A DNA stretch of 63,998 bases, the filler included, from Dirinaria sp. TL-2023a (lineage: Eukaryota): the NCBI GenBank assembly GCA_051941275.1. It is 3 parts of 3 records of this genome, joined end to end, with 100 filler letters (N's around TTAATTAATTAA, not from the genome) between each part and the next. Parts side by side here need not be neighbours in the genome. Positions count along the whole stretch, not along the records: positions 43,566 to 63,998 come from JAVEBF010000287.1; 2 more parts are not named here. One strand, given 5' to 3'. The translations under genes were made by a program, and so were the position numbers. A model generated the notes under the pieces. The model made no database searches. It saw only the letters and a list, made by a program, of their open reading frames with translations, and had not been told where the DNA came from. Shown one piece after another: positions 10,077 through 63,998 of the stretch. Numbering within the stretch: the stretch's first letter is position 1; every line of letters starts with the position of its first letter.

Positions 10077-11558
10077 TCAGAATCTGTACTGAACAGGTGG
10101 CTGCCTCGCGTCTTCCGGCGAAATTGGACTGACGTCCTGACCAGCACCACTTAATGACCGACCCCGGGTTGCTTCATCCTGCCTGCTTTCGAAGCTCTGC
10201 GTATCTCCGTGATTGGGAACACCGAGATTATGATCGTTGGACGTAGCGTGGTGGTCCGAGAACGGATTCTCGTGCCCTTGCGACTGGGGTTGCGGTGAAG
10301 GCTGCTTCCGACGCGAGAAGAGGCCCGGCGCTGGCGCTGGATTGGGCGGCGGTTCCGAGGCACCGTTGGTGAGCGGTTGCGGTTGCGGTTGCGTTTGCGT
10401 TTGAGCCGGTGGTGGTCCGACCGGCGGTGAAGGTAAGGGACTGTTGCCAAGCGCCTTCCGTGATTGCAGCATAGCGCGCTGATGCCGCGATAGAGCAACC
10501 GAGAGCTGATCATTCGTTTCGATGAGGGTGAGCAGGGTATCTTCGTCAGGAGCAGGATTGTCGGAGTGTATGTAGCCCTGTATTGATCTCGATGCTGATG
10601 AACACCGATCGACGAATTCCTTGATCAGCTCGTTGCCAACGAATTCATTTGGGGGTGTTGACTGGACGACCTGTTGCAGCAGCTTTGCCGACGTTTTTGC
10701 TTCTTCTATCCGTCCAACAAGCTCATGAGGGGGCGGAAGGCCGCGGTGATGATGCTGACGCGCAAAATAGTTCTGTTGTTGTTGTTGCTGCTGCTCAAAT
10801 GGCTGATTGGAAGTAAAAACTGGCCCATTTTGGGGCCTCAAACCTGGCTGGCCTGCTCCTCCTCCTCTTTTCTGCATCTTCTGCTTATATTTCGTCCACA
10901 TCTCTCGCATAGGATTCAAATTCTCATCATTTTCCTTCTGGGTCTCGAAGTTATCGAGCGTCTCCCTGAGTATCTGCTGGACGCTCATGTCTCGGCCGTC
11001 GCGGAGCAATTCCTTCACCGTCACGACAAATTTCGAATCAAGGTTTTTTGTAAAAGTCTTGCCTGGGTTATCTGCCAAGATTCTGACCAGCATGATTGCA
11101 TTGTACTGAACGTAAGCACGTTGAAAGTTGTCTTTCGAAAGAAATTTGCGAATGCCATTCGCAGCTGCTCGCGCTGCTGTAGGACTTGACTCGGCCGCTT
11201 CGACGATAACAGGGAGGTGGAGGACTTCTTCACCCTGTTGCTCCATTAGCGGCTTACGTTGGTGATGGTTTGGTTGACTCTGGACTGCAGTACCTGCCCG
11301 TATTCCTGGTTGGCGCCGCCCGATTCACAGAATAATCGCTAAAACCCATCAACGGCCTGCAGGTCGATGTTGCGTTAGACACAGCGGGGACTTACGACAC
11401 CGCGCGCAACACTGGCTTCTGGTGAATCGCCATTAGGAATAGCACCGCCTCTTTCCCCGCCTACGAGTTTGTCAGTCAGGCAGGCAGATGCGCGTCAAGA
11501 GCATTGTGCACTTACTTGGACGCCTGCCCATTGCAATGATTCGTTTCATAGTCGCCAT
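10077..11558 (-). CDS. VHS/ENTH-like + GAT domain adaptor (Lsb5/Tom1-like) with NPF motif
   Basis: GAT-like region LVGRIEEAKTSAKLL...DEDTLLTLIETNDQLSVAL, a Pro-rich tail and ENPF. Three small 5' exons with GT..AG introns start from ATG 11558. Confidence 0.8.
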
Positions 11559-21753: not shown

Positions 21754-21853
21754 NNNNNNNNNNNNNNNNNNNNNNNNNNNNNNNNNNNNNNNNNNNNTTA
21801 ATTAATTAANNNNNNNNNNNNNNNNNNNNNNNNNNNNNNNNNNNNNNNNNNNN
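21754..21853. other. Assembly gap with artificial six-frame-stop linker TTAATTAATTAA
   Basis: 44 N + TTAATTAATTAA (21798-21809) + 44 N. Confidence 0.98.
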
Positions 21854-29075: not shown

Positions 29076-29167
29076 CGACACCTGAGAGATTCGAACTCTC
29101 GCTCCCGAAGGAACGCGCTGTACGGAAAAGTAGCAGGCGCGCGCGTTAACCACTCCGCCAAAGTGCC
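29076..29167 (-). tRNA. tRNA-Ser(GCT) with 11-nt intron
   Basis: Minus strand folds as GGCACTT/AGGTGTC acceptor, D-arm GCG-GAGTGGTTAA-CGC, anticodon stem CGCGC/GCGCG with CT-GCT-A[cttttccgtac]A, long variable arm TTCC-TTCG-GGAG, T-arm GAGAG-TTCGAAT-CTCTC and G73. A T-run lies downstream. Confidence 0.96.
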
Positions 29168-38476: not shown

Positions 38477-41400
38477 ATGGACGCATCTCTTCGTGGCGAT
38501 GCCTCCGCCGACTTGACCGATCCAAGTTCCCTCCTTAGCACAACCTCCACATCTGCAGTGCTACCACAGGCATCACCGTTTGCTACAGCTCAAGATGGCG
38601 TTACAGCAAGGTCACGGTGGGGTGTCTTTGGGATTCTGGCATTACTCCTGGCACGGCTCATACCGGCGGTCCTGTACTGGGCAGTCACGTTTACCTCGAT
38701 AACTTTGCCCACGCTATTGTTCAAGCTATTCTCCACCAGCTTGACGTTCACAATGAACCTGACGACCTTGTAAGCAATTGATGGTTCCCAAGGGCTGATC
38801 GCAGCTAAGACGTTGCAGACTTCTCATTGCACTAGCATTTGTCTCTCTCATCACATGGATCGTCCGATATCGGTTCCTCGATATGTACGCACGCCTGCCG
38901 CCAGAACCACAGAGAAAAGAACCTCATCTCGACTTGTTTCCCGACACACAGGATGGAGACTCGAAGCCCGGCTTAGCGAATTACCTGGACGAATTCCTGA
39001 GCGCGATCAAGGTTTTTGGATACTGTGAGTGCGGCGTCGCTTCATGAATAGCCTTCCAAGTAAGCTGACACTGCTTCTAGTGGAACGATCGGTCTTCCAC
39101 GAACTTACACGAACAATGCAGACACGGAAATTGATCGCTGGGGAAACGTTGCTGCTAGAAGAAGAGAAGGGTTTCTGCCTAGTCGTGGATGGGCTGGTGC
39201 AAATCTTCGTCAAATCTGGTAGAGATAACAACCCGGCGCACAGCGAGTCATGGATGAGTAGTAGCGGCCAATTGTTTGAGGATGAGGAGGAACGCCCAGT
39301 AGAGCATCAAGGGTACCAGCTCTTAACGGAAGTCAAGAATGGCGCTCCCATGTCGTCGCTGTTCTCTATACTGTCTCTTTTCACGGAAGATGTAAATCTT
39401 CGACGTGGTAGGGATGATGAGACAAGGCTGGGCTCGAGTTCTTCGAGTGCAGGTTTTGCGCCGGGCGTCACGCCGGAGTCTATGCCAGCCACTCCTGCCG
39501 AACTCCCTCCGCATCTCGGACATCCAACAACCGGCCGCCCTCGCAATTCTTCTGTCGGAATATTGAGTAATGGCATGCCAGCTGTGCCACCCTTATCCTT
39601 GGATTCTCCCTCAAGAGTTGACGAGGATGGCCATAGCAGAAGTGAAGAACAGCACGAGACTCGTAACAAGGCGCGAAGCAGGAAATCCGTACACCCCGAC
39701 ATCGTTGCAAGGGCAACTGTTGATACTACAATTGCCATCATACCTGCGACAGCGTTCCATCGCCTTACGAGGGGCTATCCCAAAGCGACAGCGCACATTG
39801 TGCAAGTTATCTTGACTCGCCTACAAAGAGTGACACTAGCGACAGCTCATTCCTATTTAGGTCTGACCTCTGAGGTTCTACAGACGGAGCGACGCATGAA
39901 CAGATATACCAGCTATGATCTGCCGAATCATCTACGAGGATCCGCGTTGGAGAGGTTGAAAGACAAGTTCGCGGACGAAAGAGAACGACTTAGCTCGATC
40001 GAAGAGGGCATGAAGGGTATTGCATTGCACAATCCTGGTGCGGCCAGGAGGCGGCGATCCAGCAGTAGTCTGCGTAGAGACGTTTTGGCACATGCCAGAG
40101 TCTCAGCGGCACGTCACCATTCTCCCACTCGAGATCTGAACGAAGGCGGTGTCTCAAGTCAGAAGACAGGCGTTGACCCTGGCGACCTTCTGACCAACAT
40201 ACAACTTTCCAGGTTCGGAACCAGGGATCCTGCACACCTTCAAATGACGACTAAGTCGCCCGCAATAAGCCCATTGTCACCAATCGAGGGACCTTCCTTG
40301 ACAAGTCCATTGGGTCAGCGAGAATTTTCCCCTTTCTTGCCAACACCACAACGCAATGGTCTGCAGGGGCGACGTGCAGATTCGTTGGACGAGGATGGGA
40401 TGTTCCGAGAGTCGATCTTGGAGTGTATCATCAAGGCAATAGGACTAACGAATCCCAAAGACGCAATGAGGAAGTCGGCCGAATCAGTAGAGCACTCGCC
40501 CCGCATGATTTCGTATGACGCTCAACGTCAGAAAGCGACATTTTCCAATGCTTTTGGATATATGGACCCGTACGATGGCTCCGGCGACGGTGATACAGAA
40601 TCGGTCAGTTCTGTATCTGGCCATGGTGGAGGTTCTTTCAACACTAAGAAGGTCACCAGCGATACTAAAGACGAGCTTGAGATAGTCTACTTCCCCAAAG
40701 ATGCCGTACTCGTTGAAGCAGGCGAGAGAAATCCGGGTCTCTATTATGTGATCGACGGCTTCCTTGACGTAAGCGTCACCTCAGACGAAAAGCCTACGGA
40801 CAATATACCTCATATGAATGGCTCGTTGAGCCAAAGCACCGACGATCTTCTGCCGCCCCTCCGGAGAGTGGGCACGAATGCTTCGAGAAGGTCGGAGATG
40901 CGTAGCACCTCGCGTAATAGCAAGAAGCCTCAGGGGCGAAAAAGCTTGTACACAATCAAGCCCGGTGGACTAGCTGGCTACATAGGAACAGTCTCGTCGT
41001 ACCGATCTTTCATCGATGTACGGGCTAAAACGGACGTGTACGTCGGTTTTCTGCCAAGGGCCTCGCTGGAGCGATTGGTCGAGAAATATCCTGTAATCTT
41101 ATTAACGATGGCTAAACGTCTCACCAGCCTGCTTCCGCCATTGATTTTGCACATAGATTTTGCTCTGGAATGGATCCAAGTAAACGCAGGACAAGTTATC
41201 CACCATCAAGGCGACGAAAGTGATGCAATCTATATCGTACTCAACGGCCGATTACGAGCAATTCTCGAAAAAGATAACAGCATAATGAAAGTTGTTGGTG
41301 AATATGGACAAGGGGAAAGCGTGGGAGAACTTGAAGTCATGACGGAATCCGTTCGACCCGCAACATTACACGCCATTCGGGACACCGAGCTAGCGAAATT

Positions 41401-43168
41401 CCCAAAATCGCTCTTTAACAGTCTTGCACTGGAGCATCCGGGCATCACAATGAAGGTTTCTAAGATCATCGCCCAGCGAATGCGAGCTATTGTGGAAGAT
41501 CCTCTCCTGGAACAAGGCAAGGAAAAGACCAGCGGCACTTCCGTACAGAATGTTACCTCGAATGTCAATCTTCGAACAACTGCAATCTTACCGGTAACAG
41601 CTGGTGTACCTGTGGTAGAGTTTGGAAGCAGACTATTGAGTGCCTTCACGCAAATTGGCGTTGTCAACGGCGTGACCTCGCTTACTCAAGCAGCTATCCT
41701 GAACCATCTTGGCCGACATGCCTTCTCGAGAATGGGTAAACTCAAATTGTCACAATACCTTGCCGACCTAGAGGAGCGGTACGGGATGCTCCTATACATC
41801 GCAGACACCAACGTCAACTCACCATGGACCCAGACCTGTATCACCCAAGCGGACTGCATCCTCCTTGTCGGCCTTGCAGAAGGTTCACCAAGGATTGGCG
41901 AATACGAGAAATTCCTGTTAGGCATGAAGAGCACAGCAAGGAAGGAGCTCGTACTGCTCCATGTCGAGCGCTATTCACCACCAGGGTTGACACGTAAATG
42001 GCTGAGAAACCGTCTCTGGATCAATGGTGGCCATCATCACATCCAGATGTCGCTCCGAAACGACTCGGAGCCCATCAGTCCACAGATCAAGCGCTTCGGC
42101 ACCGCTCTGAAGCAAAGAGTTCAAGTACTGCAAGCCGAGATCCAGAAGTACACCTCCCGGAGGATCCGCCAGACCCCTTTATACTCCGCAGAAACACCTT
42201 TCAAAGGCGACTTTCACCGCCTCGCCCGCAGATTATGCGGCAAATCCGTAGGCCTTGTACTCGGTGGCGGTGGAGCTCGAGGCATCTCCCAGATCGGCGT
42301 TATCCGCGCTCTCGAGGAAGCCGGGATCCCAATCGACATTGTCGGTGGGACGTCCATTGGAGCTTTCATCGGTGCGCTCTACGCCCGTGACGCCGACATC
42401 GTGCCGATGTACGGGCGCACGAAGAAATTCGCAGGGCGCATGGGCAGCATGTGGCGCTTTGCGCTGGACCTGACATACCCCTCAGCCTCCTACACCACAG
42501 GCCACGAATTCAACCGAGGCATCTACAAGACCTTCGGCAACAGCCAGATCGAGGATTTCTGGCTCGAGTTCTACTGCAACACGACCAACATCTCGAAATC
42601 GCGCTGCGAGATCCACACCTCGGGCTACGTGTGGCGGTACGTGCGCGCCAGCATGTCGCTCGCAGGTTTGATCCCGCCGCTCTGCGACGAAGGCAGCATG
42701 CTGCTCGACGGCGGCTACGTCGACAATCTCACCGTCGCCCACATGAAATCCCTCGGCGCGGACGTCATCTTCGCCGTCGACGTCGGCAGCCTCGACGACC
42801 AGCACCCGCAGGCCTTCGGCGACTCCCTCTCGGGCGCCTGGGCCTTGCTCAATCGCTGGAACCCCTTCTCCTCGTACCCGAACCCGCCCACGCTCTCGGA
42901 GATCCAGGCCCGCCTCGCCTACGTGAGCAGCGTCGACGCCTTGGAGCGCGCGAAGCAAATGCCCGGCTGCCTGTACATTCGGCCTGAGATCGATCCCTAC
43001 GGGACCCTCGAGTTTGGCAAGTTCGACGAGATTTATAAAGTTGGGTATGAGTGCGGGAAAGCGTTTTTGGGCAGGTTGAGGGAGAGGGGCATGTTGCCAG
43101 TGATGGAGGAGACGGAGGAGGAGAAGGGTTTGAGAAGGACCATGGCGCCTAGGAGAGCGAGTGTTTGA
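38477..43168 (+). CDS. NTE1: Lysophospholipase NTE1 (neuropathy target esterase homolog; cNMP-binding domains + patatin), 2 introns
   Basis: N-terminal transmembrane segments, cNMP-binding-like domains, and patatin motifs GGGGARG, GTSIG and DGG. Confidence 0.97.
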
Positions 43169-43465: not shown

Positions 43466-43565
43466 NNNNNNNNNNNNNNNNNNNNNNNNNNNNNNNNNNN
43501 NNNNNNNNNTTAATTAATTAANNNNNNNNNNNNNNNNNNNNNNNNNNNNNNNNNNNNNNNNNNNN
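43466..43565. other. Assembly gap with artificial linker TTAATTAATTAA
   Basis: N-runs flank TTAATTAATTAA at 43510-43521. Confidence 0.98.
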
Positions 43566-43639
43566 AGTGGGTGTGAGACCATCGAACTCGATCGTATTCG
43601 CGGAACATTTTACCGCTACACCACCACTGTCTACGTTGT
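43566..43639 (-). ncRNA. Pol III-type structured ncRNA family, copy G (3' part lost in gap)
   Basis: The reverse complement is acaacgtagacagtggTGGTGTAGCGGtaaaatgttccgcgaatacgatcgagttcgatggtctcacacccact. TATA (TATATATA) lies at 43666-43673 and the A-box at 43613-43623. Confidence 0.7.
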
Positions 43640-44397
43640 AACCAATACATGTGGTTTAATTGTGATATATATACTTTAACATGCGAGAACACTTCCACGC
43701 TCAACATAATCAAGTTCTAAATCCCACTACATAGCTATGTAAGATACACTTAATACTTCCATCAACCCCTTTCAAATACTTCCGCCCCATTTCTACGTAT
43801 AGTTTACAACCCAAGGGTATCTGCGACTCTAAGTATTCAACAAAGTAATCAACTATTTCTCGACCTATCAAGGTGAACAGACAGACGTATGGCATGACTC
43901 GATTCCTACCTATGGTGTGTGTTTAAAAAGAGCAACCCTGAGGACGGGATTCTGGGGAATATAATACCTTAAAAGGGGTGCATGTAGAGTATGGGTGCAG
44001 ATAGTGATATATGGGAAAAATCATTTCGGGCTGAAAGTTCTATCGGTTCAGGGGGCTTAGGGGGAATTGGGCCGATTTGAAAATATGAATACTGCAGACT
44101 GCTAAAACAAGGCTGGAGGGGCTCATGGGGAATGTGGGGCCCTTGGACAGGGGATGATTAGTGGCGAATGGGCTGTATTTAAGGTACTTGTTGAAAAGGA
44201 CGGGCGAATGACAAAGGCGCCACCGAGTTCAGTTTCAATAGTGCTACATTTTTAAGAGTGAGCCAGGCCTCGGCAGTCTATGATGCTACTCGGAAGCAAT
44301 CAAAGTACATCACGACCGGATTTCTTGGCCTTCTCCTCACCTAAGCCGTTCCCTAGACCAATCACCGATAAGAGCTCTCTCCCATTGTCCCCGGCTC

Positions 44398-50802: not shown

Positions 50803-52286
50803 ATGATGTCAAAGTCACCCTCCGCTCAGACGCCGGATCAGGCTGAAGCTCAGCGACAAGCACTCTTGAATGGACCAGCTGCGCCGCCTCCATCTGGCGT
50901 CATGCCCAATTTCGAAAACCCATCGAATCTAGACGCATACGTGATACTAACGATAACGCTATGTGTAAGCCTTAGTACAGTGTCTGTGCTACTACGAATG
51001 TACACCAAGAAGTATATAATCAGATCTTTGGCATACGAAGACTGTGGGTTCTGGATCGATTCACCATGAACAGTGTCCTCACTACTAACGATATCAAGAT
51101 GTCATCCTTATTGCTTGGGTGCGATTTAATCAGAAGACTGCATTTTTAATAGCTGACTGTAATAGATTGGTCAGGTTGGGAGCACTATTCCGTCCGGCAC
51201 TGTCACCAAATATAGCGGAGGGAGGCACATGTGGAACGTTCGACTGCACACATTCTTCAGCATGCTTTATGTAAGTCCAAATCGACCAAACTCCGTGATA
51301 TGTAGAATTTCACTGACCGCGGGGAAGTGGGTAAACATTTCGGCTATCGTCTATGGTTTTGTCGTTTTCTTCGTCAAGCTTTCGATCCTTCTTCAATACC
51401 TGCGCATCTTTGCACCCACGAGAAAAGGGAACATGTTTATGTTCGTAGGAGCCCAGCTCTGCATCTGGATTGTCCTCGTCTTTTACCTTGTGGAAAGTGT
51501 GTTCGAGATTTGCAAATGCACGCCTCGAGCAAAGATCTGGAACCCACTAATGAAAGGTGGTCATTACTTTAGCCCATACGGCACCTTCCAAGCGACTGGG
51601 ATCTTCAATGCAGTATCCGACTTTGCTATCTTGATACTTCCGATGCCATCCGTATGGAAACTGCAACTCCCGCTGAGGAAAAAAGTGCTAATGACCGCAA
51701 TATTCGGTACAGGACTTTTGTAAGTCATCGTTTGCCCTACTGCTTCGCATGCACTTCGGGAACGCAATTGACACTAGCTAGCGCCTGCATGAGTTCTGTG
51801 CTGAGGACATACTATACATGGAGAATTGTCGAGTCTCCCGACGTAAGCTATTACATGACACTAATGGGGCTATAGACTAGTGCAGAGCTCTCCACGGGCA
51901 TTTTCATAAGCTGCGTTCCCGTCATGCCGAAGTTTTTCCGGCATGTGGGCCCCAAGGTTTCTAGAGCTATCGCGACCAAAAGACTTTTTATGAAGTCTTC
52001 AGCTGGCTGTTCAGTAGATGAGCCACGACTTCTGGCGGCCTCCGAACACCAACGGAGTGTCCTTTCCAAAATCCAAGAAAGTCTAGCGTTGACTAAGTCC
52101 AAGGCATCTGGCGATGTGTACAGAAACCATTCGCCACGTCCGGAAGACTATGTCGTTGACGACGAGGTAAACGCAACGCCTGAGAGTCGATTCGACCAGC
52201 TGCGCCCGCTACCAGACGCAATGCTCGCTACAAGGAGAAATGACTTGGAGAGCGCCCACTGTGGCAATGAGCGTGGTGAATGGTGA
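50803..52286 (+). pseudogene. PTH11-like / fungal rhodopsin-domain integral membrane protein with premature stop
   Basis: PPPSGVMPNFENP, VLLRMYTK, FVKLSILLQYLRIF, SDFAILILPMPSVWKLQLPLRKK and MGL*TSAELSTGIFISCVP. An in-frame TAG at 51873-51875 falls where this family usually has Trp. Confidence 0.7.
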
Positions 52287-52749
52287 GGGTGCCGGCAAGC
52301 TTGTGAATGTTAGACATGAACACTTTTAGCATCCCTCAGCTTACCAAGTAGGCAACTGTCAAAGAGTGGGATATATCATCGGCAGAAGTATTGAGCTCAT
52401 AGAGGCCTAATGAGGTAGGCTCCTTAGCGATCAGCAAGAAGGGCGGTATGAAGATGTCTAAAACTTAAAATGGAAAGTCGACAACAAAGTTCAATTTGTC
52501 TCATTTTGCACCTTTCGATATTTCTCAAAGTCTTCTCCACTTCTCCTGATCTTCCTACCTTTTCATCAGGGATGCTGCTGTTTTCGCGCACAAGGCCAGC
52601 TTAGAGCTCATAAACGGATCCCTTCCTCGCGGTACGAGGACTCAGGTAGTCGTAGCAGTGTAGAAGCTACTTCAAGTTTCCCCTTCTACACGTGCAAGCA
52701 GCGTGCTTCCATACTGCTGAGACTTGATAATTCATGAGTAGAGGTGTCA

Positions 52750-53400
52750 TGTATCTCTCTCTCAAGCTCATCACTTGGTAGTGTTCATGTTGTTGAGACG
52801 CCGTGTTCTTCCAGGTGATAGAATGAACGAATAAGCGTAGAGTCGAAATGAATGTCAGATTTATCTGTGCGAATCACTTTCGCTGGTAGAGAGCCGCGCC
52901 TCCAATGCGTGGTATTTGGCGCAGATGGAGCTCAGGTGATGCTTGTGCTTACGCTTTTAGTTTGCTGGCAATCATCGAGGTTTGTAAGGAGGTCTGAGGG
53001 ACTTCTTCGACTCAAGATTTTCAAAGATGTAGAGCGAAGGCTTTCTGACTGCAGACGACTCAGGATATCTGTGTAGGTGGCCGAAAACATGTCTGTATGT
53101 GAGATGGTCAGCACGTATAGTCCAATCGCCATGAAGCAGATAAAAGACATGTTGTAGTCAGTCACCTTGATTCCTGATAATGAACGCCGAGAATAATCAT
53201 GAAGATCATGTTGTAATGCGGAGATGCTTAGTCTCTCTTCGTATCTATGCGCCGGAGGATGATAGACAGGAGAAAACAAGTAAGGCGTAAGTCTTTACAC
53301 AATCGGCATGAATGTGCATGATTGTGTTGATGATTTATGATCGCGATTACATCATGTCTGTTACTACAAGTTCTACATAGGATAGGCAGTTCATACGTGG
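52750..53400 (-). pseudogene. Decayed intron-containing gene, paralogous to 58850-59426, divergent from ncRNA copy A
   Basis: Shared peptide blocks FSPVYHPPAHRY / FPTTYHLSAHRF and TDKSD...LIRSF / ADKSD...LIHSF, and a shared acceptor-like gtgctgaccatctcacatacag / gtgctaatcactcactcacatatag. Stops are present. Confidence 0.5.
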
Positions 53401-53575
53401 ACGTTATTGCTCGCAAATCTTCTCGGATTCCTAATGTATGTAGTAGAGTAGAGAAAGTCTAATTTCCAGTATGTGATAAACATGGAATGCGCTGTGCTAA
53501 GGCTTTTAAGTTAGGCAGGAAAGTGTTGTCGGATTTTAAAGTATATATATTATAATTAGATCAAGTACATTGGTT

Positions 53576-53709
53576 ACCACGTAGACAGTGGTGGTGTAGC
53601 GGTAAAGGTCCGCGAATACTATCGAGTTCGATGGCTCACACCCACTCAATACGGTTGATCCCCCATAACCAAAATTTTTTGGCTGAGGGTTCAAATCCTC
53701 GTGTGCACA
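53576..53709 (+). ncRNA. Pol III-type structured ncRNA family, copy A
   Basis: TATA 53542-53550; A-box TGGTGTAGCGG 53592-53602; T6 53675-53680; B-box GGTTCAAATCC 53688-53698; long T-tract to 53765. Confidence 0.8.
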
Positions 53710-54355
53710 AACCCTTTTCTTTATTTTTTTTTTTTTTATTTTTTTTTTTTTTTTTTTTTTTTTTTGGTGGCTCGCAGTCCTCGCACCATACTATCACAAA
53801 CCCTATACCACAGCCCCTTTTCCGATGCCCGTCCTTGCCCCAACCACTCCCCCTTTCACACCTGCCGCACCCCTTTTCGATATCCACTCTCCATAGTATG
53901 GAGTAGATGATAGACCTAGCGTGCAAAATCACGATCCAGCTCCTGAGGAGGCGCATATTTGATCTATTTCTCACCAGAGCGTTTTACAAAAGGTAGCATC
54001 CAGTACATCACGTGCATCATTGTGATCTGAAATCGAAGTTGACTAACTATGTATACAAGTGTTCACAGATCATCGAAGGTATTAAGCCGATCGGGAGACC
54101 TCATGTTATCACGGCTACAATCTCGATATAATTGGGTCATTTTCATGCGTGGGAGCTGTTTCATGTAATGGTCGACGCTCGGAGCCTGGTTACAATCTTC
54201 AAAGGGCAAGGTGAAGGAACGAAAGCATCGTATGAGGATACACACAAGAACCAAGCTTGGTGTTGGGGTACTATAATCAAGTACTGGAATATCAAACATC
54301 AAGCAGGAATACTATGAGCAGTCTTGAGGGCGGACATATAGGCAGGCAGTGGTAT

Positions 54356-54684
54356 TGTGGGTATTACGTCCCTGGACCCCTGCACCTCTAAGACGGTGTC
54401 GGATTTTGAGTGATGAGCGCGTCGCAGAGAAGAAGATGTTGTCGGCGAGTAGACATCGCAAGCCTAGGTAATGGGGCACGGCGGCAGACCAGGCAGAGGG
54501 TGGTGGTGACGTGTGGGCGGCTCTCCGCCAGTGTATGTAATACTTGTGTTTGTATCTAGATCATCATCACTCATTAGTATTCATACAGGACCTATACAGG
54601 TCGATTCCCCCAGGCTATTGCTGCATCCTTTGGTGCTAGGTTATCCTCCTGCTCTATCTGGTATCTAGAGTCTAGTATCCCACA
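54356..54684. mobile_element. Possible solo LTR (TGTGGG...CCCACA, 329 bp)
   Basis: TG...CA ends with a 6-bp perfect terminal inverted repeat (tgtgggtattac vs tgtgggatacta). No target-site duplication is seen and there is no second copy in the window. Confidence 0.3.
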
Positions 54685-55068
54685 TCTGTTCCCTCACACT
54701 GTGTGTATCGTTTATGATGAATGCGAAATACCCTTTTTTTTTTTTTTTTTTTTTTTTTTGAATTAGCTCAGAGTTCCCAGATCAATAGATGATGTTCGGT
54801 TTTGCACAAACCAGTAGGGATAAGTTCAAAGGATGCGGATGGCGAAATAGGGGCTACGATACACGTATATGAAAAGTTCCAGGCTTTTTTTTCCCTTTCA
54901 TGTTACGTCGCCTGAATATCTTTATACAGTCGAGACAGAATCATGACACACTACATGTAATTGCAATGAAACTTCTAAGGTAACTTTGGTGGCTCAGCGA
55001 GATATATAATTTTACCCTCTATGGAATTTAAAGTATATATATAATAATTGGGCCAAATGTTATCGGTA

Positions 55069-55187
55069 ACCACGTAGCAAGGTGATGGTGTAGCGGTAAA
55101 GTCCGCGAATACTATCGAGTTCGATGGCTCACACTCACCCTATACGGTAGAACCCCCTTTTTGCAGGTTCAAATCCTGAGGTGTGCA
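55069..55187 (+). ncRNA. Pol III-type structured ncRNA family, copy B
   Basis: TATA 55034-55043; A-box 55086-55096; T5 55158-55162; B-box GGTTCAAATCC 55166-55176 within CAGG-TTCAAAT-CCTG; T15 from 55191. Confidence 0.8.
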
Positions 55188-56995
55188 AACTTTTTTTTTT
55201 TTTTTCTTTTTTCTTTCTTAGCTCACACTAATTACACCATCTTATGTTTGCATTCGATTCATCCAGTAGGGGATCTACAGTTATAAGATATGTGTTGGAA
55301 ATCTCGCTGATACCTAGCGCCTTAGCATGGTTATGTGCCCACCACTCCCCAGCAATTCCATCCTCAGTGTCGTCCAAAACGTCACTTTTCAGCATACTAT
55401 CAGCTCAGTCTCGCCCTGTATACTCGAGGAGTGATACTCCCTGATCTATAGCAGATGCTAGCATATTTTAATTAAAGCCCTATATCGAACAGTCACGATG
55501 TTCTACGCGAGCAGTCACGGTCACAAAATCGAGCTGTTGGAAACTATACATCGGGTAAGTCACTACAAGTCATGTCTCCTAGGCTAGAATAGCTCCTTAT
55601 TTGAGGCAGTATGACCTGCCTGATACCAGAAGTATACATATTTTAAACAGTGTCGGAAACAGGCCTCTGTCGTGGTCAGCAACGTTACAGTTTGATCCAG
55701 GATGATCTATTGAATCGAAATGCCCTGTTTCGTGAGCTGCAAAGTTTTGATTTGTGGAATAAATCATGATCAGAATTTGCTAGCGTGAATGTTCTTAGTA
55801 CACTTTTCGCTCTCTCGATCACGAGCGAGTTTTGCGAGCTCAAGGAGACTGTAAGAGAAGGATATACACTACGAGAAAGCAGAAGATGCCGCAGAAAGCA
55901 GCGTCGGTCGAGAATATTTACACAACAAGAAGGATAATATGAGTCAAATGAGACCCCAATGGCGACAGGGGCGTCTCGCTTAATGGGGCGTGTTGGAAAG
56001 TTCCCACATACCTGGTGCCTTGACGTGGCTTTGCGTATAAGGAGACAAACTCTTCCAACAATTTCGTCCTGAAGATCATCAAAAATTTCAAGATACAAGA
56101 GTGCTGTCACCCCTTTTTTTGTATCCGCAAACCCCGAACATACTTTAGGATTGATGGAAAACGTACTTATAAGTGTATGTAATTGGCTTGAAAGGCTCTG
56201 ATTACTGCAAAAAGAGAGTAATACTGCTCGTCCGTTCTAAAATTACACATCTTTTCAATCTTTGAGCCTTTAATGAGACTCAAAATGTCATAGGACAGAG
56301 CAGAAACGCATGCAATTGACCTTGTTGTTTTTCAGATTTCCCAGTAGTGACGAAGGTATATTCATTCGATTGAGCGTAGTATCTTTGATCATCTGCCAAC
56401 ACATACCATTATAAAGCATGTACGATGAGGTCTTTCACTTATGACTATCACTCACAGTGCTGCCAGAATCATATTTGCATGTAGCTGAATGTATCCCTTC
56501 AGCACTCGTAAAGCGTATAGTTACACTCATATTGAATTTGGACGAAAAATAGTGTATATGGGTCTGGTAAGGTTTGAACCATGTAACGACTTTCTAGCTT
56601 TGACATAATAAGTTGGATTCTGCGTGGTGCAGTGCAAGACATATTGACTCTATCTCATACCGGCCAAACATGGGCCTACTAATGAGCGGGATCATGGAAA
56701 AATGAATAGATAATACAAGCTCACTGTTTACTCAGTACAGGAGGGTGTCCAAGATGTCCAAATCGAGGGGTTGGAGAGGGTTTAGATTTGATAAAGGACT
56801 GTGAGGCGTGTCGCTTTTTCCACCCGAGAGATTTTGATAGTTGACATGTTCAACAAGGCATTGCAACTCGGAATTGATCACTAAGATAATACATAGAAAG
56901 GTGGTAGCCCAGGGAGACCCCACGCCTTAATGGTAACTTTAAAAGAATAAAAAGTATATATATATATACAATAATTGGACCAAATTTTAGTGGTA

Positions 56996-57114
56996 ACCAC
57001 GTAGCAAGGTGATGGTGTAGCGGTAAAGTCCGCGAATACTATCGAGTTCGATGGCTCACACTCACCCTATACGGCAGAACCCCCTTTTTGTGGGTTCGAA
57101 TCCCGAGGTGGGCA
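56996..57114 (+). ncRNA. Pol III-type structured ncRNA family, copy C
   Basis: TATA 56955-56968; A-box 57013-57023; T5 57085-57089; canonical B-box GGTTCGAATCC 57093-57103; T-tract 57117-57142. Confidence 0.82.
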
Positions 57115-57116
57115 AA

Positions 57117-57148
<32 letters not shown>

Positions 57149-57302
57149 AGCATTAGTAAATATGTAGATGACGACCCTTTTAAATTCTCTTGTTACTATG
57201 TAGCAAAGCGACTATGTAGCAAGGTCGTGCTTATGCGCAGCCAAAGCTCGACCCTTCAAATTTAAACTATATATATAATAATTGGATCAAATATTATCGG
57301 TA

Positions 57303-57422
57303 ACCACGTAGCAAGGTGATGGTGTAGCGGTAAAGGTCCGCGAATACTTTGGAGTTCCATTGTCTCACACCCACCCGCTACGGTTGAACCCCCTTTTTGC
57401 GGGTTCGGATCCGGAGATTGCA
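57303..57422 (+). ncRNA. Pol III-type structured ncRNA family, copy D (most diverged, tandem to C)
   Basis: TATA 57268-57277; A-box 57320-57330; hairpin TGG-AGTT-CCA 57350-57359; T5 57394-57398; B-box variant GGTTCGGATCC 57402-57412; T-runs from 57426. Confidence 0.7.
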
Positions 57423-58849
57423 AACTTTTTAATTTTTTTAATTTTTTGCGAGCAGTTCGACTACTTCTCAATTACAAATCCATACTCACAATCAACTTTT
57501 TCTGTGTTCGCAAGACTCAATGTTGACTTTATTGCATCCCATATGATGAGCTAATGATGAATTCAGTCTGTAAGCTCATGATTCTGTTTTTTATCAGGCG
57601 TATTTTTGATCATCATGATCTATACGCAATATCTTTGACAACGCGCTATGAGTAAGTCAGACTTATTCTGTCCAGGTCAGTCGATGACTTATGCACGAGT
57701 AATGTTAAAAATCATTTCTTGGGCGATTCGAGTCTTCTCAGCGCTAGAGATGATGATACAGCGAGCATGATTGTCTTGAGAATACTGTCTCTAGAGTTAA
57801 ATACTTCGTCTACCTTTTCCGCTGACATTTGTAGTGGGTGAGTTGGGTAAAGAGAAGCGAAATTACATCGTGCGATGAAGAAGGAGGCGGTATTGAGGCA
57901 ATTGTGAAAATCAGAAAAGATGCTGAAATTTCGTATATACTCGTTCTCGTATGTACTGTTTAAATCACTATCAAAATTGCGTCACATGTATGGTGGAAAG
58001 ACCGAGAAAGTTCAGAGCACTGGTCGATCTATTACTATGTCTCGATCATTTAACTACATCGAAATGGCAAGACATACATCTAGACATTTGTCTTTAGTCG
58101 AGCTAGTCACATCTTCGCATGACTATGTGTATTCAAGAAGTTCAATCCTTCTAGCACTTCCATCTTCAATATCATCAAAATTGTCAATAACGCTGGTGCA
58201 TGGTGTCTCGACTTTGTTGCTAATCGTAGAACGAACCACCTGTTGTACCAGTACTGCTACTTTCAGCCAGCATTAGAATTCAATGACTTTGTTAGACCTG
58301 ATCCATTGGGAACGTGAAGCTAGAGATAAAGACTGTCTTGATATCGAAATATTACAGCGACGAGTTTGACTTGTCTCTTGTAGCGATAGCAATACACGCG
58401 GTTCGGCAGGTTTGGAGGATTAAGAGAGAAAAGAGAATAGTGAGGGATGACGCAGCGGAAACTCAGAGAACACCTATTGGAAACCCCATTTTCGAAGCGT
58501 TTTCCCTCAGGCAAATTTCCTCTATCCCGTATGTTAAAGGCTGCGAACGAGACTGACACAAATAGAGGCAGCCGTGAGCGGCGAAGAGTTCGCCCCCGAG
58601 CGGAACTTGTTTCGTTGTCGACGGAAATGCGGGCGCAGCAAGTGCAGTGTCGTCGCTCTGTTATGGACCTTTGGTGTACCTTCTCGCTGAAGAGCTCCAC
58701 ATGTTCTCGCAACTTTAGATCGGCTTAGCATCGATTCGATCAGAGAAAACTCGTTCAGCATTTCTCTCTCTTGTCACTTAATGAGTTTAAATAGTTCTTA
58801 CTGATAAAGATTTTCATCGGCGGACATTGCTAAGACTTGAATACTCATG

Positions 58850-59426
58850 GTCGCCGGTATCATCCATCTCTCCCAAAATCATCTCTTTATTTTGCTGTTG
58901 TTGGAGAAAAATCTTGCTTCTGCTTGGCAGAACGAATGGATAAGACCGAGTATCGAGTCAGGAGTCAGATTTGTCTGCGGGAATCATGTAGCTTATGTAG
59001 CGGACGTGTCGATGGGATCGTTTTCTATTTAGACAGAGCCCGTCCGGTGTTTTAGCTGACGCGTATGATTTGTAGAGGAATTTGTGAGCTTAGAGTCTTT
59101 GGAGATGTGAAAGCAAGACTTTCTGGTTGCAGATGATCGGGGCTAGATGTGTAAGGAACCAAGGAATGCCTATATGTGAGTGAGTGATTAGCACCTATGT
59201 AGATCTTGCTTGATTACGCCGACGAAGAGATCGCGTCATCACCTTGTTTGTCGCTCAAGGGCGCCCAGAAGATCCTTAGAAACATCCCGAATTCAATGAT
59301 GCTGGCTGCTCCTCTAAATCGATGGGCCGAAAGATGATAGGTAGTAGGAAAGGTAAAAATGGTTTTGTTGACAATATTCTGTCGCAGTTGGTGTTCCAGT
59401 TGTAGGCCGTATTTGTGATGGAACAT
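58850..59426 (-). pseudogene. Decayed intron-containing gene, paralogous to 52750-53400, divergent from ncRNA copy E
   Basis: ORF 59214..59426 plus downstream segments align by eye to the copy-A flank, e.g. gtcagatttgtctgcgggaatca vs gtcagatttatctgtgcgaatca. Stops and frameshifts are present. Confidence 0.5.
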
Positions 59427-59602
59427 AGCTAATGGAAATGCTCCTCAAATTTCTACGTAGAATGGCAGAACTCAGAAGTTGTCTTTTAGTGTGTGATAAA
59501 TGTGCTGTGCCGCGGCTATTGTGAGTGTGTTGGTTGGTTAGAACAATCAGTGTTATTGAAATTAAAGTATATATATTCTAATTAGATCAAATCCTAGTGG
59601 TA

Positions 59603-59722
59603 ACCACGTAGACAGTGGTGGTGTAGCGGTAAAGGTCCGCGAATACTATCGAGTTCGATGGCTCACACCCACTCAATACGGTTGAACCCCTCTTTTTGTG
59701 GGTTCAAATCCCGATGTGAACA
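59603..59722 (+). ncRNA. Pol III-type structured ncRNA family, copy E
   Basis: TATA 59568-59575; A-box 59619-59629; T5 59693-59697; B-box GGTTCAAATCC 59701-59711; T-runs from 59725. Confidence 0.8.
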
Positions 59723-61119
59723 AATTTTTTTCTCCTTTTTTTCTTTTTTATTCCCCATCTCTCCATCGTTCAGTACCTCGTCTTGCTAAGAAGAAGTGTC
59801 TAGAGGTCTGGGTACACCTACAGTCATGATTTTACCGATGACTCTATGAAGGCTATTGATGCTACCTCGCGTATGTCCTTGAGATCATAAGGTAGGCACA
59901 TACTTTAAGATATGCGAACGCTGCTATGCATTTACTCTCGACCCGCATAAAAACTCTTAATTCTATATCGAGCCTTGGATACATTTAAAACACCCACATT
60001 TTTTTGTATTTTGATACAGTTGCCAGTTTCATCGCAATAATATTTAAAGCGTTAGATGATGTGGGCACCCGTCCAGGGTCCACTGCCTACGTAGAGGAAG
60101 CCATGTCCCAGGCTCTACTACCTAGTGACTCATAGACTGATACAGTTGGCGATCTATGTGACGATTACAGTGGCAATTTATATGACAGGGAGTATATGAT
60201 GGGTATGTAAAGCACTTCCAACATCACCAGTGACTTCCAAAAATGCTCCAATATGGCGTTGAGTATCGCACTACAGAAGCTCTCCTTTGCCTATCCACCC
60301 ACTCCAGGCGTAGGTAGATCGAGTTGTTGGTGCTAGGGACGGCATCTTTTGGGGCTATTTCTGCTTTCTATATAGAAGTCTCTGGCCCCGGCGAGGCCCA
60401 ATACCAATATATATGACTTTGGCTAATACTAGTTCCATAAGACATTGAAAGCACATCCTTGTTCCATGTACCGTACTTCTTTTTAAAAGATTTGTGCCGC
60501 CCAGTATCACATCCGCCGCACCCTCTTCTCGTTATTTGCTGACCCTAGTGTTTATAGACTAATCGTGGGTTCCCTAATTGTAAGTGACAATACCATATTC
60601 ATATTCATCTGCGCGGGAACACCACCAGTGACCACAAATGCACACCCATTGGGTGGCATCAATGACTCTGACAGAATAGACATCGACATCTAGACACTTC
60701 CACCCAGTCAAGCCAGCCCCTGGGGCAAGAACGTGTGTACATATTCTGTGGCCAATGCGAAACAGTGTTTTCTTTTTTCATTGGATAGGAGTACTCCAAA
60801 CCAATCATGACAATTTGAATAATTTGTCGATAAGCAAAATTCTGGAAGGTGTGGAGGTCCAAATAGGATGTGTTCAGGAACGTGAGAGTACGGTTGCTGT
60901 CATTCCTGTAAAAGCATTGTAAGCCTGTTTATAATTAATTAGGAGAAAGAGCGCGGGGGGATGACTACAATTAATTGCAATGTAAATTTTATGCTAGGTA
61001 ACGATGTAGTAAGGTGGTAGCAGAACGAAACCCATAATTTTACTCCCTATAGAATCTATGATTGAAGTGTTGTGGAATTTAAAGTATATATATTGTAATT
61101 AGATCAAATCTCAGCGGCA

Positions 61120-61238
61120 ACCACGTAGGCGGTGGTGGTGTAGCGGTAAAGGTCCGCGAATACTATCGAGTTCGATAGCTCACACCCACCTGATACGGCA
61201 GAGCCCCCTTTTTGCGGGTTCAAATCTCGGTGTGTGCA
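61120..61238 (+). ncRNA. Pol III-type structured ncRNA family, copy F
   Basis: TATA 61085-61092; A-box 61136-61146; perfect CTATCG-AGTT-CGATAG hairpin; T5 61209-61213; B-box GGTTCAAATCT 61217-61227; T-runs from 61243. Confidence 0.8.
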
Positions 61239-61748
61239 AACATTTTTTTATTTTTATTTTTTCTTTTTTCTCTTGGAAGCTGTTAGCGTTCTGGTAGCCT
61301 TAGCATAAGGCTAGCATCGAAATCCTCCAAATGACGCAACCTCATACACCTACCCACTGAAAATATATCGGCACAGTAACATTTTGCAGATGCCTGCAAT
61401 GCAGTCTTGCGCGCTATTGCGCACAGCCCACTAAGTGTTGGAAGCGGAAAGACAACAATAAGGTAGGGTGGCCTTGGGCGCCTTAAGTAGGTATCTATGA
61501 CTCACAGCTGCAGCCCCGCAATGCAACTCCGACAATTGATACTTAGCATCCACCACTACCCACAGCGATCTCTCTCAAGAGTTTTTCGTGGAAGTTTGAA
61601 TAAGCCATTCTATCGAAATCTCTCCCATTCTCCCCGTCGTACTTCCGCCTTTACAAGAGGACACACAATATCGTTACAGGCAACCCCGGCCTCCGGTATC
61701 AGCACGAATAGCAATTCTATCGAGTTCAAAACCACGCCTAACTTCAAG

Positions 61749-62420
61749 ATGACTTCTACCTCTACCAACCAAGCTTTATACCAAGAGGCTGACTCAGCCA
61801 GCGATAAAACCTCGGTACCCAATGACTCTCCCGCACCCAGCCCACGTACTAGCATCACAAGCGCCTCCGAAATCTCAGATGAAGATGATGACGAATATGA
61901 AAATCTGGCCCAACCTCTTTTCGATCTGATCACGAACCACGTCGCCGAATGCCAGAGATCGCCCGAATACCCAATCTCAAGCACTGATTTCCCTTCATTC
62001 AAAACCTTCTGGCGCTCACAGTTCGACCACCTCCGCTCCTGCCTAGTGGACTCCCAGGAGAATCGCTTACTGATCACGTATCCGCCTCTTCGTGTTCTCG
62101 AGATAGCGATCCTTGATAACGCGGAATTGCCCGAATGTCCCTGCGATCTCGATCATCGGGATGCTGATATTGTAATCCGTCAGTCCGATGGGATCTCGAG
62201 AGAGGGTTTACTAGGGGCCATAAATGAGGCGCTGTATGGGGACGGGGTACAGAGCGAGGATCTCCCGCTCTGGACAAAATATGGTGGGCGGTTGGTGGTC
62301 AAGGGGTGGAACTGTATGTTGCAGGATGAGAATATTTTCTATAAAGGGTCTTCAAACACAAGAATGAGAATATGGATACATTGCGCTGGAGCTGACGATC
62401 AGAATATTGGCTCGGTATGA
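61749..62420 (+). CDS. Hypothetical protein (~223 aa; ORF open from 61497), acidic N-terminus, no recognised domain
   Basis: Intact ORF with a plausible ATG context (ttcaagATG) and a protein-like C-terminal half (ECPC...GISREGLLGAINEALYG). Confidence 0.6.
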   Translation: MTSTSTNQALYQEADSASDKTSVPNDSPAPSPRTSITSASEISDEDDDEYENLAQPLFDLITNHVAECQRSPEYPISSTDFPSFKTFWRSQFDHLRSCLVDSQENRLLITYPPLRVLEIAILDNAELPECPCDLDHRDADIVIRQSDGISREGLLGAINEALYGDGVQSEDLPLWTKYGGRLVVKGWNCMLQDENIFYKGSSNTRMRIWIHCAGADDQNIGSV

Positions 62421-63998
62421 TTTTCGTTGAAAATCGTCTCTGGAAAGGGAGAAGTTGGTGGCTTTCTAATTTTTCATTGGATTGTGATAGTCAACTCTCT
62501 TCTATATAAGAGGGCTCGCGTTTTCTTATGGAGAGTACTTCATGCTGTCCTATATAAGGAAGGCTCTCAACGCTCGTTTCAGCTAAGAACGAACCATTCA
62601 CGCGAATTGAATTGAATCTCGGTCACATGGCAAAAGCTCTCCATCATGTACCGTACCCCCGTCGCAAGCAAAGGGGCCTCACATCCCCATCCAGAAAAGC
62701 GTAATCAGTCTACATGTGGCAAGGCCCAACACTACTGTTTCGACATTGTATTTATCTACATCTAGCTACACCGAATTGAGCAGCAGGAGCGGAGACTTCT
62801 GCATAAGTACGATTTCGGTGCCTTACGTGTAGGTAAGCATAACTTATGTATGTGGGGAATGCTTTCTCAATTCTCCAACATCTCCTTATCAATTACAGGA
62901 TACCACTCCGAAAGTTCTTTGATAGCTTGGCTCTGCCATATCTTGAGACATTTGCAATTGACTCGGTAGAGAATCCTAATCATTCGATCGATATCGAAGC
63001 TAAACGCCCTATTCTGGGATATTTTCAAAGACAAGCTTAGATGTGTCCCTGATCCTCTATTGGATTCAGCTGTGTGGACGCCGTCCCGCTTCAGCAACAT
63101 TTTGAGTGTTCTACAATGACCTCGAAAGAATGAAGAGAAGCAAGCACGAAGCAAGTGGCTTCCACATAGTCCTCTGATTGAACGGCAATATCTCGAGAAT
63201 GAAAATTGAGCTCCATATTCGGCATCTCTCCTTGTTTTCCGAGCTCTCCTAGCTTTTACTCGATATACTTTCCACCTACATCGATTCGAACTGAGGATTC
63301 TTGGGCATTTCGGCAACGATATTAACCTAAGTAATGAATGTTACTGCTCGGGGTTTTTGGGGGAAAAGGTGATACAGGAAATCGAGAAGTTTATCGGGAC
63401 TGTCAGGATCATGTGAACGAAAGGCAGAGACGGATATTCTAGATCTAAAAAATGAAAAGATCAGCATCATGCCTGGTCAATGTATGGATCTACCACAACA
63501 CAGTCTTCTTGTGCAGTTATGCGATAGCGGTCTTTCTTGTCTCGCGTCATAATGGCAGTGCTGTTCCTGCGACGAGCTGCATCCGCCTTTGCTACTTTCC
63601 CAGTTGAGATGGTGCAACAGCACCTCAAGATGTACTCCAAATTGTTCCAGATTTAGCAACCACTGCATCTATTTCTGACCCCACTCGCTGATTTTTTCCA
63701 GTGTAGTTCGATTCCAAACCATCACGGCTTGGCAGATTAAGCTTCCACCAGATCTCCTCATGCGCTCGATCCGCTATGGACTGTGGTTTCACCAATCTCG
63801 AGATATGGCTGAATATATCGTGCGCTCGGTAACTGTAGCATTTCTATCAACGACAATGGGTCTTTCTGCTCACAGGTTAGCGTAGCAAACCGATAGTCGT
63901 GGTCTCTGAAATATATTTCTCCCTTGCATGCCTTATGTACGCGAGCAGTGGCGGCGATAACAGAACGGTAGATGGTTACCGAAACGCAATCGTAGCTC

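Follow-up and report, generated by a model that had tools for sequence, protein, structure and literature searches.

Background: small Pol III RNAs and their relatives

The set of RNAs that Pol III produces in fungi is thought to be small, consisting of tRNAs, 5S, U6, the RNase P and SRP RNAs and a few oddities. To our knowledge, lichen-forming fungi have scarcely been examined for non-coding RNA. One of the best comparisons for a compact fungal gene of this type is SNR6, the budding-yeast U6 gene, which combines an upstream TATA box, an internal box A and a box B located downstream of the terminator (PMC9136082). Another comparison comes from rodents, where 4.5SI, 4.5SH (and BC1) are described as Pol III RNAs of about 100 nt, born from tRNA or SINE sequences, with A and B boxes and a TATA-like box at -31/-24 (PMC7279448). 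Their genes occur in small local clusters (three 4.5SI genes lie 4-40 kb apart) or in tandem arrays, and their taxonomic range is narrow (PMC7279448).

Y RNAs and stem-bulge RNAs (sbRNAs) are a third group to which such a gene may be compared. The Ro60 site is described in a 2015 review as a 7-bp helix with a single bulged C and a 3-nt bulge opposite, placed in the lower stem formed by the termini, and the review reports that fungi had so far yielded no candidate (PMC4726728). The major milRNAs of Neurospora are Pol III products (PMC3547838).

A repeated element of Dirinaria sp. TL-2023a resembles SNR6 in promoter layout, the rodent RNAs in size and clustering, and the Y RNAs in a short stem motif. 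With moderate confidence, it is read here as probably a previously undescribed family of small-RNA genes, transcribed by Pol III, amplified locally and provided with a promoter arranged like that of SNR6. The product would be a Y-shaped, U-tailed RNA of about 90 nt, and the family perhaps goes back to a tRNA gene.

Copies of the element and their surroundings

Exactly seven copies of the element, here called A to G, are found in the window (the whole stretch of DNA analysed, 63,998 nucleotides with filler): six on the + strand between 53.5 and 61.3 kb and one on the - strand at 43.6 kb. An nhmmer profile built from the copies recovers all seven in the 64-kb window at E <= 5e-29, the next match having an E of 1.5, and a covariance model that encodes the named structure, applied without filters, returns the same seven at 70-112 bits, followed by a match of 10.5 bits. 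The conserved unit extends beyond the interval 53576-53680 on which the earlier note was centred, to a promoter upstream and to a B box and T tract downstream (Table 1). The predicted transcript is 105 nt long in copy A, which carries a 15-nt insertion, and about 92-96 nt in other copies. Copy G lies about 10 kb from the others and is readable through the promoter and the Y domain up to CCACT; 3' of this point the window holds N (43466-43565, a filler block), and features of the 3' part are counted on the six readable copies. Copy D, with two unpaired positions in hairpin 2 and a changed B box, is the most altered copy and is possibly decaying.

Table 1. Positions of the element, its parts and its copies in the window
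Feature	Position	Strand	Parts and remarks	Basis or score
Copy A, whole unit	53522-53767	+	promoter, RNA body, B box, T tract	nhmmer 53522-53728, E 7.6e-57; 111.5 bits
TATA box, copy A	53542-53549	+	TATATATA; ~34-35 nt before predicted start	columns invariant in 7-copy alignment
Predicted transcript, copy A	53576-53680	+	ACCACGUAG to T6 run; 105 nt	limits of the strong-conservation block
Y-shaped domain (predicted), copy A	53580-53653	+		pair counts, minimum-energy fold, covariance model match
A-box-like motif, copy A	53597-53608	+	TAGCGGTAAAGG; ~21 nt past predicted start	invariant apart from loop indel
First T-run, predicted Pol III terminator, copy A	53675-53680	+	T6 in A, T5 in B-F	
B box, copy A	53688-53698	+	GGTTCAAATCC; past terminator	within T-arm-like hairpin
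Long T tract, copy A	53724-53767	+		10-44 nt of T-rich sequence after every + strand copy
Copy B	55020-55217	+	nhmmer to 55205; transcript ~55069-55162; B box 55166-55176	104.7 bits
Copy C	56947-57145	+	nhmmer to 57133; transcript ~56996-57089; B box 57093-57103	103.9 bits
Copy D	57250-57450	+	nhmmer to 57441; 307 nt past C; B box GGTTCGGATCC	96.2 bits
Copy E	59549-59747	+	nhmmer to 59741; transcript ~59603-59697; B box 59701-59711	112.3 bits
Copy F	61065-61270	+	nhmmer to 61257; transcript ~61120-61213; B-box-like GGTTCAAATCT 61217-61227	109.6 bits
Copy G	~43566-43692	-		nhmmer E 5e-29; 70.1 bits (covariance model)

Several sequence details accompany the copies. The insertion before the T-run, present in copy A only (53661-53683), extends that run to T6 and gives rise to the near-palindrome CCAAAATTTTTTGG. 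The spacer between C and D (57161-57233) contains short stretches, ATGTAGCAAAG and ATGTAGCAAGG, that resemble the 5' part of the element, and a similar stretch precedes copy F at about 60975-61030; these sequences score nhmmer E values of 1.5-2.8 and may be decayed partial copies.

The region at 52000-63998, where GC content falls to 40-45%, includes about 10 kb around the cluster without an ORF longer than 141 aa, except for one of 307 aa (61497-62420) that has no Pfam domain. A protein-domain search of the 15 ORFs of at least 70 aa at 52-63 kb gave one sub-threshold match, to DUF6622 (E 0.02). Elsewhere in the window, an intron-free ORF of 1379 aa (39029-43168, + strand) codes for a lysophospholipase of the NTE1 type, in which cNMP-binding, NTE P-loop and patatin domains are recognised; counted along the joined stretch, roughly 400 nt separate its end from copy G, and the filler at 43466-43565 lies between them. 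This filler block and a like one at 21754-21853 each consist of two 44-N runs around 12 readable bases. A GAT/VHS-domain protein at 10077-11246 has 56-72% identity to proteins of lichen-forming Lecanoromycetes such as Xylographa, Lobaria and Lasallia, and 88% and 79% to other relatives.

Putative promoter and terminator anatomy

The TATA box lies 35-36 nt before CCACGTAG and, owing to a longer TA run, 42 nt before it in copy C; like the box itself, promoter columns close to it do not vary among the copies. A second conserved patch, AAGTGTT, is common to four copies about 20 nt upstream of the TATA box. The promoter motif TTAAAGTATATATAT is exact in five of the seven copies and has one mismatch in D and two in C; the upstream region of a tRNA-Ser gene, the only true tRNA gene in the window, matches it with three mismatches. 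This tRNA-Ser(GCT) gene (29076-29167, - strand, with an 11-nt intron) was identified by Rfam and by ARAGORN with introns allowed, having been missed by default ARAGORN, and serves as a control: it has TATATAA 35 nt before the mature 5' end and a T8 terminator. The presence of TATATAA at this gene indicates that Pol III genes in the window carry TATA boxes, and TATA boxes at tRNA genes have also been reported for S. pombe and plants (PMC7279448).

Inside and beyond the predicted transcript, further elements follow in a fixed order. A T-run of at least five is present in all six readable copies and is kept in A despite the 15-nt insertion just upstream. It is followed after 3-7 nt by the B box sequence GGTTC[A/G]AATCC, from which D and F differ by one base. 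Exact matches to GGTTCRANNCC number four in the 64-kb window, all of them in copies A, B, C and E, against an expectation of 0.88, and none of 100 shuffles reached four. The motif TAGCGGTAAAGG resembles what we take to be the A-box consensus, TRGCNNAGTGG, a likeness that was judged without a score. A box and B box lie 75-77 nt apart in five copies and 91 nt apart in A. The long T tract begins 11-15 nt past the T-arm-like hairpin in B-F and 25 nt past it in A. Taken in sequence, a putative SNR6-type order of elements (TATA box, internal A box, terminator, B box) can be read in all six readable copies. The proposal of the earlier note that the locus is a repeated gene for a structured small RNA ending in oligo-U, probably made by Pol III, is supported. 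The promoter anatomy and the sharp edges of conservation described below, neither of which figured in that proposal, constitute the strongest evidence on the identity of the element.

An inverted repeat, GAACCC...GGGTTC, surrounds the T5 run (55151-55171 in B, and likewise elsewhere) and is 94% paired over six copies, with no covariation. As a consequence of this repeat, the 3' tail of the RNA would be complementary to the 5' half of the B box and T-arm.

Sequence constraint and history of the copies

Substitutions were compared between the promoter, the predicted transcript and the sequence after the T-run in the two closest pairs of copies, A/E and B/C. Between A and E, 13 of 58 promoter positions differ, against 1 of 86 in the predicted transcript and 8 of 31 after the T-run (Fisher p for body versus promoter 2.9e-5, and for body versus the part after the T-run 8.5e-5). 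The pair B and C gives a similar picture, with 18/59, 1/86 and 6/31 substitutions, respectively, and p values of 2e-7 and 1.3e-3. The near-frozen block thus runs from the predicted start to the first T-run. This speaks for an RNA of about 90 nt as the functional product and for a B-box region that acts at the DNA level and is less strictly constrained. The positions that separate the A/E/G variant from the B/C variant are frozen within each, which suggests that the variants are maintained.

Flanks beyond -65 are close to random. Residual similarity nevertheless exists in patches: as far as about -150, the upstream flanks of B, C and F are 73-79% identical, and a different patch is common to A and E. 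Upstream of B, C and F (54950-55030, 56894-56920 and 60964-61058), a shared GGTGGTAGC/GGTGGCTC motif is found about 80-100 nt before the start, which could be an old duplicated flank or a further upstream element. A search for target-site duplications around the copies found none, with no flanking direct repeat longer than 8 nt except TA repeats. The residual flank homology and the lack of target-site duplications together argue for an old DNA-level duplication in place and not for retroposition; retroposition is further disfavoured because a retroposed Pol III transcript would not carry an upstream promoter. Likeness among the copies also changes partners along the unit: B and D are 95% identical in the promoter stretch, and B and C are 99% alike in the body, which shows that copies have exchanged some sequence by gene conversion. 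If confined to the segment where copies are most alike, such conversion could imitate some of the contrast between body and flanks.

The predicted Y-shaped fold

The RNA of copy A is predicted to fold with an outer stem CGUA/UACG, a basal stem AGUGG-UG-GUGU/ACAC-CCACU containing a UG bulge in its 5' strand, and two enclosed hairpins, GCGG-UAAAGGU-CCGC and CUAUCG-AGUU-CGAUGG. On the seven-copy alignment this named fold comprises 23 pairs and 157 cells, of which 97.5% are paired; sliding the 3' partners by 1-3 columns as a control leaves 27-49% of cells paired. Changes on both sides occur in three pairs. Pair 13-75 is G-C in four copies and A-U in three, pair 17-71 is G-C in four copies and A-U in two with a mismatch in D, and pair 51-58 is C-G in six copies and G-C in D. 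A fourth pair, 48-61, is U-G in four copies, U-A in F and unpaired in D and G. Breaks that are uncompensated number two in D and one in G.

The description of this fold in the earlier note was correct in all its sequence statements. The long-range stem was placed correctly at AGTGG/CCACT (53587-91/53642-46), GGTGA/TCACC (55081-85/55135-39) and GGTGG/CCACC (61131-35/61186-90), and the mismatch reported in D is the one at pair 17-71. The outward extension CGTA/TACG is invariant in all six copies that have it, and reaches 6 bp in D. The hairpin GCGG/CCGC has an invariant stem with length changes in the loop only (6 nt in B and C; 7 nt in A, D, E and F; 9 nt in G), and in the CTATCG-AGTT hairpin the two changes that had been listed, U-G to U-A in F (48-61) and C-G to G-C in D (51-58), are both present. 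The alternative small hairpin around TACGG, for which covariation had also been claimed, is not supported: it shows no excess over shuffled alignments, 119 of 500 of which reach the observed value.

The claim that compensatory changes support the fold stands in part. High pairing and three double changes favour it, and only 3 of 500 shuffles reach the observed percentage of paired cells and covariation score; however, 94 of 500 reach the number of both-side changes. Because the seven sequences are paralogs on one small tree, the three double changes amount to about three evolutionary events; a grouping suggested by body and flanks, made by eye, is ((A,E,G),(F,((B,C),D))). The minimum-energy fold is the Y shape in six of six copies, but its stability does not exceed that of shuffled sequences (z from -0.18 to -1.73, with 11-77 of 200 shuffles at least as stable). 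RNAalifold, which had been proposed as a check, favours another register on these copies, GGUGU:ACACC, in which a bulged base and a G-C to G-U change take the place of the change at 17-71, and one double change is lost. A three-way fold is supported as the best predicted secondary structure for the RNA, and the Y shape is plausible and modestly supported, if unproven. The predicted fold leaves both termini single-stranded, four nt on the 5' side and about 15 nt on the 3' side. Length changes in the loop of hairpin 1 aside, the hairpin loops and junction strands do not vary. This invariance, which equals that of the stems, makes the core of a small ribonucleoprotein the likeliest role of the RNA, as a best guess.

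Comparison with known RNA families

No Rfam family matched at gathering score, and none of the Y RNA, tRNA, vault, SRP, 5S, U6 and ribozyme models matched at E<=10 (searches of 9 kb and of a single copy); with the single copy, the remaining Rfam families likewise had no match at that limit. The RNA would thus fall outside the catalogued Rfam families, and the family is read as undescribed and possibly tRNA-gene-derived. A limited literature search turned up no paper on an RNA of this kind in fungi or lichens. Pattern scans of metagenome, prokaryote and viral contigs revealed no homolog in another species. In metagenome contigs the pattern occurred at 70 loci, 13 of which had an nhmmer match at E<=10, in each case partial and centred on the seed used for the search (model positions 4-59 at most, best 19.5 bits), and no tRNA was found in the 16 of these loci that were checked; contigs of prokaryote genomes gave two chance matches and viral contigs none. 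The covariance model reached at most 19.1 bits on all 72 pattern loci, against 70-112 bits for the copies.

The similarity to SNR6 lies in promoter layout only, with a TATA box near -30, an A box, a T-run and a B box past the terminator. The A-to-B distance is 202 bp in SNR6 and 75-91 nt here, the B box here follows the terminator by only 3-7 nt, and there is no Rfam U6 match. The rodent 4.5SI, 4.5SH and BC1 RNAs are alike in their length of about 100 nt, in combining Pol III-type A and B boxes with a TATA-like box, and in local clustering. They differ in having no sequence relation to the element, in carrying the B box inside their transcripts and in not belonging to a fungal host; moreover, isoform-specific compensatory stem changes are a feature of the family described here, whose tRNA or SINE origin would be an indirect reading.

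The element has several features in common with tRNA genes. The TATA box has the same distance as at the tRNA-Ser gene of the window, a D-arm-like hairpin contains the A-box-like motif and a GG in its loop, and a T-arm-like hairpin with a consensus B box is followed by a T tract at tRNA-like spacing. In contrast to tRNA genes, there is no cloverleaf, anticodon arm or acceptor pairing, and a T5 run separates the A and B boxes. ARAGORN reported no tRNA in the cluster region, and the Rfam tRNA model gave no match there at E<=10. Three related candidates were considered and rejected. For a tRNA with a long intron, the models obtained with relaxed ARAGORN were judged spurious, the acceptor stem inspected in copy E being built from the AT-rich promoter. 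A tRNA-like acceptor stem between GCUCACA and the sequence past the T-arm, judged by eye, was discarded because its 3' side varies without compensation. A tRNA-derived SINE does not fit the roughly 65 nt of conserved promoter upstream, the T-rich tail on the promoter strand or the lack of target-site duplications.

Y RNAs and sbRNAs share with the element its size, Pol III-type gene, oligo-U tail, A/GUG-CAC/U in a long-range stem and clustered paralogs, and differ in that Y RNAs have a variable loop where an invariant three-way junction and unpaired termini are predicted here. The kinship suggested in the earlier note is not supported: AGUG/CACU or GGUG/CACC is found in seven of seven copies (as a 3-4 bp motif, weak alone) and the U tail is predicted, whereas the Rfam match, the Ro60 site, UUAUC and the paired termini are missing. 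With regard to the Ro60 site, the outermost helix spans 4 bp, or 6 bp in D, and the sole bulge is the UG on the 5' strand. UUAUC occurs in none of the seven copies, while CUAUC occurs in five, where it forms one strand of hairpin 2. Rnt1p recognizes an AGNN tetraloop on a long duplex, which it cleaves about 14-16 bp below the loop, and the AGNN rule is a feature of budding yeast. Recognition by Rnt1p, which the earlier note had raised, is not supported: the AGUU loop is present in seven of seven copies, yet the 6-bp stem beneath it falls well short of that cleavage distance and ends at the junction.

Alternative explanations

A longer RNA of about 125-135 nt, which would pass the T5 run, end at the long T tract and include the T-arm-like hairpin at its 3' end, is regarded as rather unlikely. 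It could arise by Pol III read-through, or it could be a Pol II Sm-class-like RNA with a C/A-U5-6-G Sm-like site followed by a terminal hairpin. The hairpin around GGTTCAAATCC keeps four pairs in most copies, and a single double change in it, from A-U to G-C, is a hint at possible transcription of the hairpin; 73% of its cells are paired, and 33 of 500 shuffles reach its covariation score. The exact B-box consensus in that hairpin is, on the other hand, a prediction of a DNA promoter element, and the minimum-energy fold of the long form keeps the Y shape in only one of six copies. The only Pol III control in the window terminates at T8 and not at T5, for which reason T5 may be considered a leaky terminator in the host fungus, and the T tract, 11-15 nt past the hairpin in B-F (25 nt in A), has the spacing seen at the 3' end of a tRNA gene. 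Against this, conservation drops sharply at the T-run (6/31 and 8/31, compared with 1/86 in the body), and the sequence between hairpin and T tract varies without compensation. The T-run of copy A, AAAAUUUUUUGG, fits what we take to be the Sm consensus, but C and not A precedes the U-run in five of six copies. Alternatively, the copies might be non-functional repeats, relics of a tRNA-like or SINE-like element kept alike by gene conversion instead of selection, with stems inherited from their ancestor. The local paralogs with signs of exchange (the B/D promoters and B/C bodies), the apparent decay of D and the unremarkable fold energies would all be expected of such relics. This explanation appears improbable, as the unit takes in some 65 nt ahead of the predicted start, unlike a retroposed Pol III transcript, target-site duplications were not found around the copies, and the T-rich tail shares its strand with the A and B boxes and hence is not poly(A). 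In two independent pairs the limits of the near-identical block coincide exactly with the predicted start and terminator, TATA box, T-run and B box are kept in six of six readable copies amid near-random flanks, and three stem changes are compensated.

A further explanation, considered very improbable, is that the RNA belongs to the Y RNA/sbRNA type, acting in a Ro60 or DNA-replication ribonucleoprotein, or that it is a precursor cut at AGUU into small RNAs by an RNase III resembling Rnt1p. The A/GUG-CAC/U motif is present in the basal stem of all seven copies, but GUG/CAC is a 3-bp motif that can easily be shared by chance, and the Rfam Y_RNA and sbRNA models had no match at E<=10 on the one copy searched. 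The predicted oligo-U tail, the length of about 90-100 nt and the clustered multi-copy gene of Pol III type are traits described for these RNAs in the review (PMC4726728), whereas Ro60-site geometry and UUAUC (0/7 copies) are missing, the RNA ends are unpaired and the interior is a three-way junction with two invariant hairpins instead of a variable loop. For the precursor variant, the Pol III origin of Neurospora milRNAs (PMC3547838) is set against an AGUU hairpin of only 6 bp. The same low probability is given to the reading that the genes encode a first fungal counterpart of the Y RNA/stem-bulge RNA class, rebuilt on a tRNA-gene chassis and with isoforms diversified in lichen-forming fungi.

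Proposed mechanism and significance

Under the preferred reading, a Pol III small-RNA gene family with an SNR6-like layout, TFIIIB would assemble on the invariant TATA box about 35 nt upstream, and TFIIIC would contact the A-box-like motif about 21 nt into the gene together with the B box 3-7 nt past the first T-run. Transcription would proceed from near ACCACGUAG to the T5-T6 run, yielding an RNA, about 90 nt long, whose 3' end carries oligo-U. This RNA may fold as a three-way junction, in which a bulged, GUG/CAC-rich basal stem carries two short hairpins, leaving about 15 nt at the 3' end (GGUUGAACCCCC-Un) presumably single-stranded. The copies would have arisen by DNA duplication in place, and selection would keep at least two variants, A/E/G and B/C, with F in between. 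The weakest step in the argument is the possible origin in a tRNA gene in which a terminator arose before the B box. Such an origin is suggested by the promoter parts and by the T-arm-like hairpin with the T tract that comes after it at the spacing of a tRNA gene; against it stands the Rfam tRNA model, which finds no match even at E<=10.

The consequences depend on which parts of this model are correct. If the RNA is unexpressed, the finding amounts to a local repeat family of little consequence. If the tRNA origin is true, the family would illustrate clearly how a tRNA gene can become a different RNA through an early terminator. The loci also represent a ready-made short cassette of Pol III promoter and terminator for this fungal group. 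If the proposed gene layout is true, a B box just past the terminator would occur outside budding-yeast U6, and a conserved, structured RNA of about 90 nt with multiple isoforms would become a new member of the fungal Pol III set.
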